This document shows, piece after piece, positions 925-29,985 of a DNA stretch of 64,000 nt. The notes under the pieces are model-generated. The model was not told the DNA's origin and searched no databases. It saw only the letters and a list, made by a program, of their open reading frames with translations. The translations under genes and the position numbers were made by a program. Source of the stretch: a virus; the IMG/VR virus record IMGVR_UViG_3300046684_000205, positions 29,479 to 93,478 of that record. One strand, given 5' to 3'. Each line of letters begins with the position of its first letter. Positions within the stretch are counted from its first letter, which is position 1.

Positions 925-1226
925 TGGCGATCCGGAAAATTGGCATGCTCACCGAGGTCACGCCCGGCCAGTACATCTGCATCGAGCCGCTGATGCGCGA
1001 CCACATCTGCAGCTCGCCGCTGAAGGTGCTTCGCCGCAGCGGTAAGCGGGTGTATTTCGAAAACCGGCATGGTGAAGAGAAGTTCTGCGCTGTCGGCAGC
1101 GTCGTTGCCCTGTGCGACACCCAGGAGGAGGCCGCGGAGCTCTTCGCCATCAGCCTGTCGCAGTTCGACCGGCTGCGCGAGGTGCGCAACGAGCACAAGG
1201 CGCAGTTCGCGGCCCTGCTCGCATGA
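924..1226 (+). CDS. hypothetical protein (100 aa)
   Basis: TAATG stop/start overlap, GGAGG upstream. Confidence 0.7.
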   Translation: MAIRKIGMLTEVTPGQYICIEPLMRDHICSSPLKVLRRSGKRVYFENRHGEEKFCAVGSVVALCDTQEEAAELFAISLSQFDRLREVRNEHKAQFAALLA

Positions 1227-2326
1227 GCACGGCCTACTACAACGAGTTCGATCCCGGCGCCGCGGCGTGGCTCCGGGAGTTGATTAAAGAGAAGCTGATC
1301 GCGCCGGGCGTGGTCGACGAAAGGAGCATCGCAGATGTCACACCCGGAGACCTTGCCGGATTCACCCAGTGCCACTTCTTCGCCGGCATCGGCGGCTGGT
1401 CCTACGCTCTCCGACTTGCAGGCGTCCCTGACAGCCGTCCAGTCTGGACTGGAAGCGCTCCTTGCCAGCCTTTCTCCTCGGCAGGCGAGGGAGCGGGGTT
1501 TGATGATGAGCGGCACCTATGGCCCGCTCTCCACCACCATGCCCGCGTCCGACGCCCTGCAGAAATCCTTGGAGAGCAGGTTGCAAGCAGTCTCGTCGAC
1601 CCATGGATCGACCTTGTACAAGCTGATCTGGAAGCCCTGGGCTACGCCGTCGGGGCGCTCGCGTTCCCGGCTTCGTGCGTCGGTGCCCCGCACATCCGCG
1701 ACCGCTGCTACTGGGCAGGCCGGCTGGGTGACACCGACCTCCCGCGACTGGAAGGACTCGGGAGCCGATATCAAGCCGCGCTCGGACAATGGCAAGGAGC
1801 GCCTGGATCAGCTGCCGCGGCAAGCGAACTTGTGCGGCTGGTCCACGCCGATCGCCAACGAGGCCAAGGCGGGCACGCCCTGCTCCAACCAGGTGACGGT
1901 GGGCATGGCGGCGCAGCTGACGGGCTGGCCGACGCCGCGCGCGGTGGATGGCAGCAAGGGTGTGGACCCGACGGCGGACACGCTGCGCGGCACGGATCTG
2001 CCGACCACGGCCAGCTGGACGAGTGGGATCGCCGTGCCGGGCCCGGCCCGACTAACGGCTACTGGGAAGCTGCTGACTGGCTTGCTTGCCGAGACAGCCG
2101 ATGGCGGCCTGTTGAATGCGGCACACAGCCGCTGGCTCATGGGCTACCACGAAGCTTGGGATCGTGCGGTGCCAGGGTGGCAGGACTGGCACGCATGGCA
2201 GGTCTTGATGCAGCAAGCCTTGGCCGAGCAAAGAGCTACCGCGTGACGGCGCTGCGAGGCTATGGCAATGCGATCAACGTCTATGCCGCGAAAGCATTTA
2301 TTGAAGCGTTCTACGGGAGCATCTGA
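1223..2326 (+). CDS. C5 cytosine DNA methyltransferase, large (alpha) polypeptide
   Basis: FFAGIGG (motif I), GSAPCQPFS (IV), EQV (VI), PHIRDRCYW (VIII), LRGYGNAI (X); ATGA overlap at start. Confidence 0.88.
   Translation: MSTAYYNEFDPGAAAWLRELIKEKLIAPGVVDERSIADVTPGDLAGFTQCHFFAGIGGWSYALRLAGVPDSRPVWTGSAPCQPFSSAGEGAGFDDERHLWPALHHHARVRRPAEILGEQVASSLVDPWIDLVQADLEALGYAVGALAFPASCVGAPHIRDRCYWAGRLGDTDLPRLEGLGSRYQAALGQWQGAPGSAAAASELVRLVHADRQRGQGGHALLQPGDGGHGGAADGLADAARGGWQQGCGPDGGHAARHGSADHGQLDEWDRRAGPGPTNGYWEAADWLACRDSRWRPVECGTQPLAHGLPRSLGSCGARVAGLARMAGLDAASLGRAKSYRVTALRGYGNAINVYAAKAFIEAFYGSI
1335..2246 (+). CDS. nested +1-frame ORF, putative beta polypeptide of the methyltransferase (TRD plus motif IX); true start uncertain
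   Basis: 303-codon ORF inside the MTase gene; three GWxTP repeats; LNAAHSRWLMGYHEAW resembles motif IX, which the main frame lacks. Confidence 0.65.
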   Translation: MSHPETLPDSPSATSSPASAAGPTLSDLQASLTAVQSGLEALLASLSPRQARERGLMMSGTYGPLSTTMPASDALQKSLESRLQAVSSTHGSTLYKLIWKPWATPSGRSRSRLRASVPRTSATAATGQAGWVTPTSRDWKDSGADIKPRSDNGKERLDQLPRQANLCGWSTPIANEAKAGTPCSNQVTVGMAAQLTGWPTPRAVDGSKGVDPTADTLRGTDLPTTASWTSGIAVPGPARLTATGKLLTGLLAETADGGLLNAAHSRWLMGYHEAWDRAVPGWQDWHAWQVLMQQALAEQRATA

Positions 2327-3044: not shown

Positions 3045-3487
3045 TGTCTGGCTTGAGCCCTGACTCCAGGCGCAGCCTGGAGGAGTTGGCCAAGGTCCAG
3101 GCGCTGGTCCGGCGCGTCTCCAGCCCGTTCTGGATGCACCGACCCACGGCCTGGCAGTGGGTCGGGCCCGACGGCCGGCCGCAGGGCTTCGCGCCGATGG
3201 CGGGGACGAGCCCGGGCCTGTGTAACCTGCTGTGGCTAGCCATGGAATTCGACCGGCCGCCGCAGGTCTACCAGGCCAGCCACAACGGGCTCTACATCAT
3301 CCTGCTCAGCCAGGCCCACAACGCGATGCTGGACGGCGAGCCGCTGACCGACTGGGCCAGCGTCCTGACGCTGCGCGAGTTCGCCGACAGGTTGCCGGCC
3401 ACGAGCGAGGCGGAACTCGCTGTTGAGCGTGCCTACCCGCTGCTGAAAACACTTGCCGCGCGGAGGCTTGCAGATGCTCACACTTGA
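3041..3487 (+). CDS. hypothetical protein
   Basis: ATGA overlap, fills operon. Confidence 0.6.
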   Translation: MMSGLSPDSRRSLEELAKVQALVRRVSSPFWMHRPTAWQWVGPDGRPQGFAPMAGTSPGLCNLLWLAMEFDRPPQVYQASHNGLYIILLSQAHNAMLDGEPLTDWASVLTLREFADRLPATSEAELAVERAYPLLKTLAARRLADAHT

Positions 3488-4916
3488 ACAGGTGATCGAG
3501 CGCTACCCCTTCCCGCATCCGCTGGGAGGGGTCATGACACTCGAACCGATGCAGAAGGAGGATATCGTCAAGGCGGTCATGTGGCGCCGCGCGCTGCTCG
3601 ATCTACCGGTCGGCTACGGCAAGACGGTGATCGCGACCGCCATCTCCCTGGTGCTGCAGCCGCAGCTCACCATCATCCTGGTGCCGCCGGTTCTGATCCC
3701 GCAGTGGGTGGCCTGGCTGGGCAGCATTCCCGGCGCCGGGCTGGCGCTGGCCTACGACGCCCCGCCGAAGAAGCGGCAGGCGCTGCCCCTGCAGGACGCG
3801 GACTGGCTGGTGATGAGTTACCAGGTGTTCAACAATGACATCGAGCTGCTGCGCAGGCTCTGCGCCAAGGCCGAGGTGTTGCTGGTGGTGGACGAGGCGC
3901 AGGCACTGAAGGGTCGTGGCGTGCTGTTCAAGAATGTGCGTAATTTCGCGGCGGGCCGCGACTTGATCACGATGTCGGGCACGATCGCCAGCAAGCCGGG
4001 CGACTACTACAGCTACATCAAGCTCAACACGCCAGACACATACGGGACCTATACGCAGTTCGAGAACATCCATGTCAAGGAGCGCGACATCTTCAAGCAG
4101 CCGATCGAATGGCACAATCTCGATCTGCTGCAGACCAACCTGAACATGCGGCGCATCCACCGCACCAAGGAGGAGGTGCACTCGGCGCTGCCGAAGGCGA
4201 AGGTCATCCCGATCTATTACGACCTGTCGAAGGAGCACATGGCGCTGTACCGCCGCCTGATGGAGGAGCAGCTCCTGCTGCTGGACGACGGCGGCAAGAT
4301 CGACGCCACTACTGCCACGCGGCTGTATCACGCAGCGCAGCAGATCGTGATCGATTACGGCTTCTTCGCCGGCGACGAGACGAAGCGCTCGGCGATCTTC
4401 GACCTGGTCGACGGTATCGCCGACGAGATCAACCTTGGCGGCGAGATCCTGATGGACGGGAAGCTGCAGCCGGCCAGCAAGCTGATCCTCTGGACCACGC
4501 ACAGGAGTGTCTCGCGTCTGATCGGCGAGCACATGGATGCGCGGCTTGCGCCGATCGGCAAGAGGGGTGTGATGGCCTTTTCCGAGGTCGACTCGAAAGC
4601 GAATGTCCAGCAGTTCATGAGCGACCCGAATACGGTGAATTTGACAGCGCAGCCGGGCAGCGCCGGCGCCGGCCTGAACCCGCAGTATTTTTGCTGGGAA
4701 TGCGCTTACGTGCAGCTGCCGACGACCACGATCCCCTTCATTCAGTCCTCGGGTCGGATCGACCGCAAGGGGCAGCGCTACAACCCGAACATTCGGTTGC
4801 TCATCGCGCGCGGCACGATCCAGGAGCAGCTGCTGAGGAACCTCATCAAGAATGACGAGCTGGTCAACAAGGCAGCCGGCTCGAAAGGTGCCATCAAAAA
4901 TATGATTTTCCCGTAG
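3474..4916 (+). CDS. SNF2-like SF2 DNA helicase
   Basis: PVGYGKT, VVDEAQ, MSGT, AGAGLN, QSSGRIDRKGQ. Confidence 0.88.
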   Translation: MLTLEQVIERYPFPHPLGGVMTLEPMQKEDIVKAVMWRRALLDLPVGYGKTVIATAISLVLQPQLTIILVPPVLIPQWVAWLGSIPGAGLALAYDAPPKKRQALPLQDADWLVMSYQVFNNDIELLRRLCAKAEVLLVVDEAQALKGRGVLFKNVRNFAAGRDLITMSGTIASKPGDYYSYIKLNTPDTYGTYTQFENIHVKERDIFKQPIEWHNLDLLQTNLNMRRIHRTKEEVHSALPKAKVIPIYYDLSKEHMALYRRLMEEQLLLLDDGGKIDATTATRLYHAAQQIVIDYGFFAGDETKRSAIFDLVDGIADEINLGGEILMDGKLQPASKLILWTTHRSVSRLIGEHMDARLAPIGKRGVMAFSEVDSKANVQQFMSDPNTVNLTAQPGSAGAGLNPQYFCWECAYVQLPTTTIPFIQSSGRIDRKGQRYNPNIRLLIARGTIQEQLLRNLIKNDELVNKAAGSKGAIKNMIFP

Positions 4917-29331: not shown

Positions 29332-29985
29332 CTACAATCCCAGGGTTGCGCGCGTGTCTGCGATGAATGCATCCCAATTGGCGATGGCGCTGGCAAGTTG
29401 CGCGGGTGTCGCCGCCGCGCGCATCGCTGCTTGGCTGGCGAAGCGTTGACTACGCATCGTCTTCTTTGCGACCTTGAAAGCATCGGCGCGCGCGATGATC
29501 CCATCTGCCGCCCAGGCATTGGTTTGCGCCGCGCCAGTCGGGTTGTGCTGCGCGTACGATGACACATCGCCGTCTACCTCGCCTTCGTAGCCAGCGGCGA
29601 CGAAGGCGCGCGCCGCGGCCTCGGCGTCACGGTACTCCTCGGTGCGCTCGCCGACGGCGTCGCGGGTGACGGCGTCGACATCCGGGTAGCACCTGCGCAC
29701 GGCCGCCTCGATGTCGGCCTGGAGCGATGCCGCCTCGGCCGCAAGTTGTTCGGCCGTCTTCTCGGAGATCCTCCAGTACGGCCGCCAGGTGCCGCTCGTC
29801 AGCTGGAACTCGACCAGGGTCGCAGTCTGCGTGCTGGTGATCGCTGGCGCCACCGGATCAGCGACCTCGATAATGTCGCAGGCGGTGCGCTGTTCGGCGT
29901 CGAAGAACCAGCCGGGCGGATACTGCACGTCGCCCACCAGCTGCGGCAGAGTAATGTCGAAGGGCTGTCCGTTATGGATATACAT
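29332..29985 (-). CDS. tail fibre-associated/assembly protein
   Basis: follows the fibre-like gene; YPPGW and EYRDAEAAARAF patterns. Confidence 0.6.
   Translation of the reverse strand: MYIHNGQPFDITLPQLVGDVQYPPGWFFDAEQRTACDIIEVADPVAPAITSTQTATLVEFQLTSGTWRPYWRISEKTAEQLAAEAASLQADIEAAVRRCYPDVDAVTRDAVGERTEEYRDAEAAARAFVAAGYEGEVDGDVSSYAQHNPTGAAQTNAWAADGIIARADAFKVAKKTMRSQRFASQAAMRAAATPAQLASAIANWDAFIADTRATLGL

Follow-up and report, generated by a model that had tools for sequence, protein, structure and literature searches.

A nested second reading frame in a phage cytosine-5 DNA methyltransferase gene: a probable two-chain enzyme encoded by doubly coded DNA

M.EcoHK31I and M.AquI establish that DNA (cytosine-5) (C5) methyltransferases can be made of two chains, and artificially split enzymes of this class reassemble (PMC2836561, PMC3404938). 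In the two-polypeptide M.EcoHK31I (Escherichia coli HK31; YGGCCR; Lee, Kam and Shaw 1995), the beta gene lies wholly inside the alpha gene in the other reading frame (PMC2836561, PMC3404938), a precedent that an earlier note on the DNA analysed here, made from the sequence alone, had described correctly. Here we describe a nested locus in a stretch of tailed-phage DNA of 64,000 nucleotides (nt), positions 29,479 to 93,478 of the IMG/VR virus record IMGVR_UViG_3300046684_000205, referred to below as the window. The alpha open reading frame (ORF) runs on the + strand in frame 1 from ATG 1223 to TGA 2326 (367 amino acids, aa). The beta ORF (303 aa, + strand) runs in the +1 frame from ATG 1335 to TGA 2246, entirely within alpha, exactly as the earlier note had it, and the two overlap by 912 nt. 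The locus is probably, at roughly three chances in four, a doubly coded gene in which alpha provides the catalytic domain and beta the recognition domain of one assembled methyltransferase.

The pair resembles M.EcoHK31I in having a beta nested in an alternative frame, with motif IX (a putative assignment here) on beta and motif X on alpha. By its description, M.EcoHK31I is set apart in other respects. Its alpha keeps a target-recognition domain and its beta is a small motif-IX peptide, whereas here alpha has a neutral linker and beta, five times longer at 303 aa, carries recognition modules, the motif-IX-like segment and an extra N-terminal module. M.EcoHK31I is also part of a restriction-modification pair, whereas the present gene lies as an orphan within a module of phage replication genes. 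The earlier note had cast beta as a motif-IX chain; the motif-IX segment stands, but the chain also holds the whole target-recognition region and the N-terminal module and is not a small peptide. New relative to M.EcoHK31I are the whole recognition domain in the second frame, the doubly coded N-terminal module, the 912-nt span and the family-wide conservation. M.AquI shares with the present pair separate catalytic and recognition polypeptides, but its second chain carries motifs IX and X and its genes are consecutive, whereas beta here is nested and motif X lies in the alpha frame past the beta stop.

The family is large: at least 8000 alpha-frame and 4809 beta-frame proteins were matched, and it spans phages of Proteobacteria and Firmicutes. 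Salmonella phage epsilon15 and a Klebsiella prophage are among its members. The arrangement is partly on record, since some GenBank entries carry both coding sequences (CDSs) and PHROGs holds the beta family as phrog_1008 (matched by beta at 5.8e-32), which is labelled DNA methyltransferase. The expectation that gene callers would miss beta was therefore too strong, given the thousands of beta-frame database proteins, although such loci are usually half annotated. A full-text literature search turned up no paper describing or testing the nested beta of this family.

Openness and constraint of the two frames

Homologous loci, 162 in all, were gathered from viral contigs, bacterial genomes and GenBank phages, with a guanine-plus-cytosine (GC) content of 0.50-0.68. 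The earlier note had regarded stops in the +1 frame of homologues as decisive against its reading; the results showed such a stop in 0 of the 162 loci. The open +1 run covered 228-462 codons, about 85-99% of alpha in most loci, and the openness persisted down to GC 0.50. In the same loci the longest open run in the +2 frame was 34-189 codons. When the alpha protein was held fixed and synonymous codons were permuted in the 147 distinct loci, 3.97 stops were expected in the +1 frame, and none was seen in 147/147; the +2 control frame had 15.05 stops observed against 13.2 expected. The converse permutation, of beta-synonymous codons in 111 loci, gave an expectation of 1.94 alpha-frame stops in the middle segment, where none was present in 111/111, and the third frame there had 4.47 observed against 4.39 expected. 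Even the first 50 beta codons contained 4 stops over all loci against about 75 expected, though this region is conserved as alpha only. By comparison, the +1 frame of E. coli dcm, an unrelated C5 methyltransferase gene of GC 0.52, has 14 stops. The nested frame is open far beyond chance or a high-GC artefact, and beta never occurred without alpha among the 162 loci.

Third-position diversity was determined by codon in an alignment of 147 alpha genes. The result showed a diversity of 0.52-0.63 in codons 1-70, 0.25-0.47 in codons 71-160, 0.13-0.29 in codons 281-310 and 0.48-0.59 past the beta stop; alpha synonymous sites were constrained exactly where beta is conserved. In the well-aligned parts of a beta-based codon alignment of nt 1719-2019, the third position had a diversity of 0.59-0.66, compared with 0.36-0.50 at positions 1 and 2. 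Substitutions between the window and its three closest relatives (L003-L005) were also classed as synonymous or not in each frame, with a null of about 0.26 in both. The alpha- and beta-synonymous fractions were 0.62 and 0.17 in 1223-1448, 0.56 and 0.38 in 1449-1718, 0.23 (null 0.27) and 0.43 in 1719-2039, 0.41 and 0.41 in 2040-2165, and 0.56 and 0.20 in 2166-2323. Judged against the null, these fractions divide the gene into five segments, constrained in order as alpha only, both, beta only, both and alpha only, and the diversity maps gave the same order. The synonymous-site constraint that the earlier note had proposed to look for is present in both comparisons.

The first doubly constrained segment (1449-1718, + strand) places alpha motifs IV-VIII over the beta N-terminal module, with a beta residue conservation of 0.66-0.80. 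In the second (2040-2165, + strand), the beta motif-IX-like LLNAAHSRWLMGYHEAW (2112-2159) lies over alpha GPTNGYWEAADWLACRDSRWRPVECGTQPLAHGLP, and all three codon positions have a diversity of 0.13-0.32. Between them, 1719-2039 (+ strand) encodes three GWxTP modules in the beta frame and a stop-free disordered linker in the alpha frame; here alpha evolves neutrally yet stays free of stops. Within the overlap, 1335-1448 and 2166-2246 are constrained as alpha only and 1719-2039 as beta only. The earlier figure of about 900 nt of dual coding is accordingly borne out as the extent of overlap (912 nt), but only about 400 nt (1449-1718 and 2040-2165) is under purifying selection in both frames.

These results bear on the reading that the nested ORF is a by-product, either of high GC content, which can leave an off-frame open, or of an indel introduced when a metagenome contig was assembled. 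The window has a GC content of 65%, at which long spurious ORFs are common, and for the window alone the chance of zero +1 stops by codon permutation was only 0.02. The frame was nevertheless open in 162/162 loci, including those of GC 0.50-0.55, and also in Firmicute phages at GC 0.47, while control frames were broken as expected and both synonymous-site constraint and beta-frame periodicity were seen. The methyltransferase gene was identical, with 0 differences and 0 gaps, in contigs of two other rhizosphere samples, so the two-frame layout is not an assembly or indel artefact. The 162/162 openness, the permutation tests and the identical independent contigs refute the by-product reading, whose remaining probability is negligible.

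The beta frame has a translation start signal of its own (1321-1337, + strand), consisting of the Shine-Dalgarno sequence AAGGAG at 1321-1326, an 8-nt spacer and ATG at 1335-1337, all inside alpha codons E33-V39. A +1-frame ATG in the open frame was found within the 50-nt zone just upstream of motif I in 143/147 loci. It stood at the exact beta-start position in 118/147, and 89 of these 118 had a GGAG-type Shine-Dalgarno sequence. The alpha codons that spell the signal were skewed: GAT encoded D38 in 83% of loci (32% in the rest of the domain), AGG encoded R34 in 39% (5% elsewhere) and AGY encoded S35 in 70% (47% elsewhere). It is through atypical alpha codons that the beta start signal is conserved. 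All three marks of same-strand dual coding were found at the locus, namely a second frame open beyond chance, depressed synonymous variation in the first frame and a separate start signal.

The alpha and beta chains and their relatives

In the alpha chain (1223-2326, + strand), motifs I-VIII are followed by a disordered linker, then by a conserved C-terminal segment and finally by motif X. Each of the motifs I, IV, VI, VIII and X that the earlier note had read in the main frame was found, all on the + strand; invariance is given over 105 homologues. Motif I, FAGIGG, the S-adenosylmethionine (AdoMet)-binding loop, lies at 1379-1396 (F53, A54 and G55 invariant). Motif IV, SAPCQPFS, lies at 1454-1477 with the catalytic Cys81 at 1463-1465 (P80, C81, Q82, P83, F84 and S85 invariant) and aligns with PCQAFS of M.HhaI. 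Motif VI, GEQV, at 1571-1582 (G117, E118 and Q119 invariant), is equivalent to ENV and aligns with the ENV of M.HhaI, Dcm and gp70 of Mycobacterium phage ShiLan. Motif VIII, APHIRDR, at 1685-1705 (P156, R159 and R161 invariant), is equivalent to QxRxR and aligns with the PQ(K/N)RER or PHRRER of relatives. Downstream of the beta stop, the motif X helix LRGYGNAINVYAAKAFIEAF at 2252-2311 (G348 and N349 invariant) has its core GNAIN at 2264-2278, in the C-terminal helix of alpha. With motifs I, IV, VI and VIII in order and motif X on a C-terminal helix, alpha is most likely the catalytic chain of a C5 methyltransferase.

Database comparisons placed alpha in known families over part of its length. 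PF00145 matched residues 76-172 only (E 6.1e-11; 42.7 bits, cut-off 22), the alignments to Pfam PF00145 and M.HhaI together being confined to residues 68-172, and phrog_363 of PHROGs matched at 5e-74. An AlphaFold2 model, built from the alignment of the 105 homologues, showed a confident catalytic domain in residues 1-170, with a predicted local distance difference test score (pLDDT) mostly above 90, and a confident C-terminal helix with motif X in residues 330-366 (pLDDT 82-91 over the motif X helix). Against M.HaeIII and M.HhaI the model gave a Foldseek probability of 1.00 with only about 170-190 columns aligned, and further C5 methyltransferases were matched over a similar span. Residues 174-269 (nt 1742-2029) were predicted to be disordered (pLDDT 31-47). 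No folded target-recognition (small) domain was found between motifs VIII and IX in alpha, where residues 174-269 are disordered, neutral and variable in length. The description of the region from motif VIII to motif X as low-complexity filler fits these residues, all below pLDDT 50, but not residues 271-310, a strongly conserved segment.

The beta chain was matched by 4809 database proteins, and the best 120 of the 4809 had 27-100% identity, mostly over about 90% of the length. Its conserved N-terminal module, GSTLYKLIWKPWATPSG, is made of a helix and a hairpin, and the AlphaFold2 model was confident for this fold in residues 70-120 (pLDDT 81-87) and moderately confident in the C-terminal part. 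Three GWxTP target-recognition-like modules start at 1722, 1836 and 1923. They are followed at 2112-2159 by the motif-IX-like LNAAHSRWLMGYHEAW, which the earlier note had put at the end of the ORF; it is present, 28 codons ahead of the stop rather than at the very end. Over 147 loci, each beta ORF contained 0-8 WxTP modules (mode 3), and the length of the alpha linker tracked this number, with alpha lengths of 263-628 aa. An ESM Atlas search with beta returned viral clusters of the same family only.

Two observations concern unusual contexts of beta-like sequence. Among the proteins longer than 531 aa that matched beta, 0 had PF00145; two of the matched proteins, P0249 and P0254 (660 and 877 aa), have the N6/N4 DNA methylase domain PF01555 joined to a full beta-like region. 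Some phages may have beta as a fusion with the upstream adenine methyltransferase gene or as a product of read-through from it. HQ332136 ('Dunaliella viridis virus SI2'; 1347-1823 of locus L165) holds a deletion remnant that has lost the catalytic domain, in which the first ~25 alpha codons are joined to the linker and C-terminus and the +1 frame has stayed open over the beta recognition and motif IX region.

Relatives of the alpha catalytic domain are present in actinobacteriophages. ShiLan gp70 has, in one frame, a catalytic domain, three LLPTPxAxDG modules, LAPAFSEWMMGWPAGW and then GNGVVP. The alpha profile aligned with gp70 residues 65-157, spanning motifs IV-VIII (Prob 99, E 6.4e-18), and the beta profile with residues 219-357, the LLPTP modules and motif IX (Prob 90.5, E 1.3e-6). 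In the latter alignment, the beta pattern LNPAHSRWLMGLPxxW was matched with LAPAFSEWMMGWPAGW (SEWMMGWPAGW), directly upstream of the gp70 motif X. By profile alignment, alpha and beta are therefore homologous to consecutive parts of this single-chain enzyme, with motif X remaining in the alpha frame, and the best reading of the alignment is that beta carries motif IX. ShiLan gp70 and the likewise one-chain Graduation gp47 share with alpha and beta a homologous catalytic domain, recognition modules (LLPTPxAxDG vs GWxTPxAxD) and motif IX, but they have all of these in one frame, with 153/128 and 107/91 open codons in their +1/+2 frames, respectively, which gives the +1 frame no excess of openness. 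A beta-like +1 frame that ShiLan gp70 had seemed by eye to contain was rejected on these counts (153 against 128) and an hhalign Prob of 0.4.

In other actinophages the two parts are separate genes. Gordonia phage Upyo has gp54, with motifs I-VIII like alpha, and gp53, with the modules, motif IX and motif X. Beta matched gp53 (E 2.2e-6), its GWxTP modules aligning with the LLPTP modules and its motif-IX segment likewise. The catalytic and recognition parts of Mycobacterium phage Shaka are likewise two genes, gp77 and gp76. The genes of these pairs are consecutive (a 22-nt gap in Upyo, a 23-nt overlap in Shaka), with motif X on the second chain, whereas here beta is nested and motif X is on alpha. 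The two parts stand in different frames in both Upyo (L170, 1097-2366) and Shaka (L173, 383-1478), and many cluster-mates have the same pair; each of these pairs may be a genuine two-chain enzyme or may mark a site of frameshifting.

Members of the same two-frame family with both CDSs in GenBank include Xanthomonas phage PhiXhv-5 and Paenibacillus phage Leyra, whose annotated nested pair gp61/gp62 has 236 open codons at GC 0.47 (beta vs gp62, E 9.6e-12). Both CDSs are also annotated in records of Paenibacillus larvae phages; in Bacillus phage yong1, another Firmicute phage with the nested layout, 161 codons are open and the annotation has alpha alone. Papers on Paenibacillus phages (PMC6070908, PMC5056774) name two methyltransferase genes and do not comment on them, and a further paper on the genome of a family member (PMC3025963) lists the genes in the same way. 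Streptococcus phage MM1 orf13/orf14 is annotated 'alpha/beta subunit' and, as here, has a +1 nested ORF labelled beta subunit, but orf13 by itself makes up a full canonical enzyme, with a recognition domain and motifs IX and X in frame, and its nested ORF is thus probably a different thing. In MM1 (DQ113772; L172, 1486-2643 and 1637-2062; GC 0.41), the +1 ORF has 141 codons (161 from stop to stop) and the +2 frame at most 20. M.BatI, a C5 methyltransferase of a Bacillus anthracis prophage, is specific for GCDGC and shows activity when E. coli expresses its gene; it is described as falling 20-30% short of the usual length of C5 methyltransferases, as having a very short recognition region and as toxic independently of catalysis (PMC8936443). 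Judged from that description, M.BatI is a possible relative of the alpha/beta family.

The comparison with one-chain relatives also raises the possibility that a single polypeptide is made by two programmed frameshifts, one into frame 2 once motif VIII has been read in frame 1 and one returning to frame 1 ahead of motif X. Such a path would recreate the order of the one-chain ShiLan gp70 (I-VIII, recognition domain, IX, X), and the Shaka-type second part does stand in the +1 frame with a 23-nt overlap. However, a slippery-site scan found the alpha frame free of X_XXY_YYZ heptamers, and 1223-2326 contains no run of five or more identical bases. Some 90 codons ahead of any shift site, beta is already open and under constraint, and it has its own conserved Shine-Dalgarno sequence and ATG; alpha is kept open through the middle segment, and two successive shifts would give a very low yield. 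Since no slippery site is present, beta is open and constrained upstream with its own start, and alpha is kept open, we consider a double frameshift very unlikely.

A two-chain enzyme and its alternatives

In the preferred reading, the locus would be a doubly coded gene for a two-chain C5 methyltransferase of a tailed phage of about 85 kb, expressed from one transcript with two initiation sites. Ribosomes starting at ATG 1223 would make alpha, with its AdoMet-binding catalytic domain, linker, C-terminal segment and motif X helix, the last of which would complete the catalytic domain. The linker, standing where the small domain used to be, would be passive and need only stay free of stops. Beta would come from other ribosomes, starting in the +1 frame at the internal Shine-Dalgarno sequence and ATG (1321-1337), and would consist of the N-terminal helix-hairpin module, three GWxTP target-recognition modules and the motif-IX-like segment. 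Beta would supply the small (recognition) domain that alpha is without, and the two chains would bind to form the active enzyme that methylates the phage DNA. This methylation may protect the phage from host restriction.

Several points weigh against this reading. We infer only indirectly that beta is translated, that it binds alpha and that both chains are needed for activity. The 'motif IX' label of beta comes from one profile alignment to a one-chain relative and a pattern resemblance, and Pfam fails to recognise the C-terminal half of that relative, ShiLan gp70. Beta found no methyltransferase family in Pfam, either as a single sequence or with all 108 members at E up to 10, and no match in NCBIfam; its profile found no match among PDB sequences at E up to 10 and no relation to E. 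coli Dcm (hhalign Prob 0.06). The AlphaFold2 model of beta was poor overall (mean pLDDT 60), with no PDB match at E below 0.001 in Foldseek and a best Z of only 3.4 in a wide VIA-align search. In addition, alpha carries a conserved R-P-V-E-x-G-x-x-P-L-A-x-G-x-P just ahead of motif X, which by its pattern could be a degenerate motif IX, and alpha would then perhaps be independent of beta there. As for the frame statistics, the loci share phylogeny, and pooled probabilities overstate their independence.

Some of these points would suit an alternative in which beta is a real, conserved overlapping gene acting independently, for example as a DNA-binding regulator or anti-defence factor, while alpha methylates alone, with low specificity or via its own C-terminal segment. 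Beta matches no curated methyltransferase model, its extra conserved N-terminal module is missing from one-chain relatives, and the alpha segment before motif X is conserved with motif-IX-like spacing. On the other hand, both one-chain and two-gene relatives have a recognition-plus-IX region homologous to beta in its C-terminal half, a neutral disordered linker takes the place in alpha that the recognition domain occupies in every C5 methyltransferase, and beta never occurs apart from alpha in the 162 loci. An independent beta is therefore improbable in our view, if less so than a double frameshift.

If alpha and beta do form one enzyme, the phage and prophage methyltransferases of a large family have been annotated and cloned as though each were one small protein whose middle is oddly low in complexity, and specificity prediction, REBASE-style cataloguing and heterologous expression would all require the hidden frame. 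A wider proposal is held only tentatively, as somewhat doubtful. According to it, a canonical one-chain enzyme was re-partitioned so that the +1 frame of its catalytic domain came to encode its recognition domain; the beta N-terminal module was overprinted on motifs IV-VIII and now serves to dock to alpha; the 0-8 GWxTP modules set single or multiple specificities; and few same-strand dual-coding regions of double-stranded DNA phages are as long or as widely conserved as this overlap. The locus provides an unusually clean natural case of simultaneous purifying selection on two frames, over about 400 nt, and its one-chain and two-gene relatives illustrate ways in which overlaps of this kind come about. 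The case argues against discarding long nested same-strand ORFs by default when phage genes are called.

Genome setting of the locus

The tailed-phage genome from which the window comes was recovered from rhizosphere metagenomes and encodes DNA polymerase, primase, helicase, a 2423-aa tape measure protein, major head protein, portal and terminase. Upstream of alpha lies an RdgC-like gene (73-924, + strand; PF04381, 1.4e-63). Downstream of the methyltransferase come first a 60-aa ORF and then a deaminase-like ORF (2506-2841, + strand). The latter has HAE and CxxC motifs and a weak match to PF00383 (E 5.9e-4; 20.1 bits, below the cut-off of 25), the region matched being the cytidine/deoxycytidylate deaminase zinc-binding region. 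The methyltransferase and this gene two places away may form a nucleotide-modification module. The other neighbours are a helicase at 3453-4916, one small ORF and the 60-aa ORF. No nuclease-like neighbour was found within about 3 kb on each side of the methyltransferase, and so no pairing with a cognate restriction endonuclease was seen. The stop TGA of the ORF directly before alpha overlaps the alpha ATG (ATGA, 1223-1226), and the alpha stop abuts the following ATG (TGAATG, 2324-2329); these two junctions suggest translational coupling along the operon.

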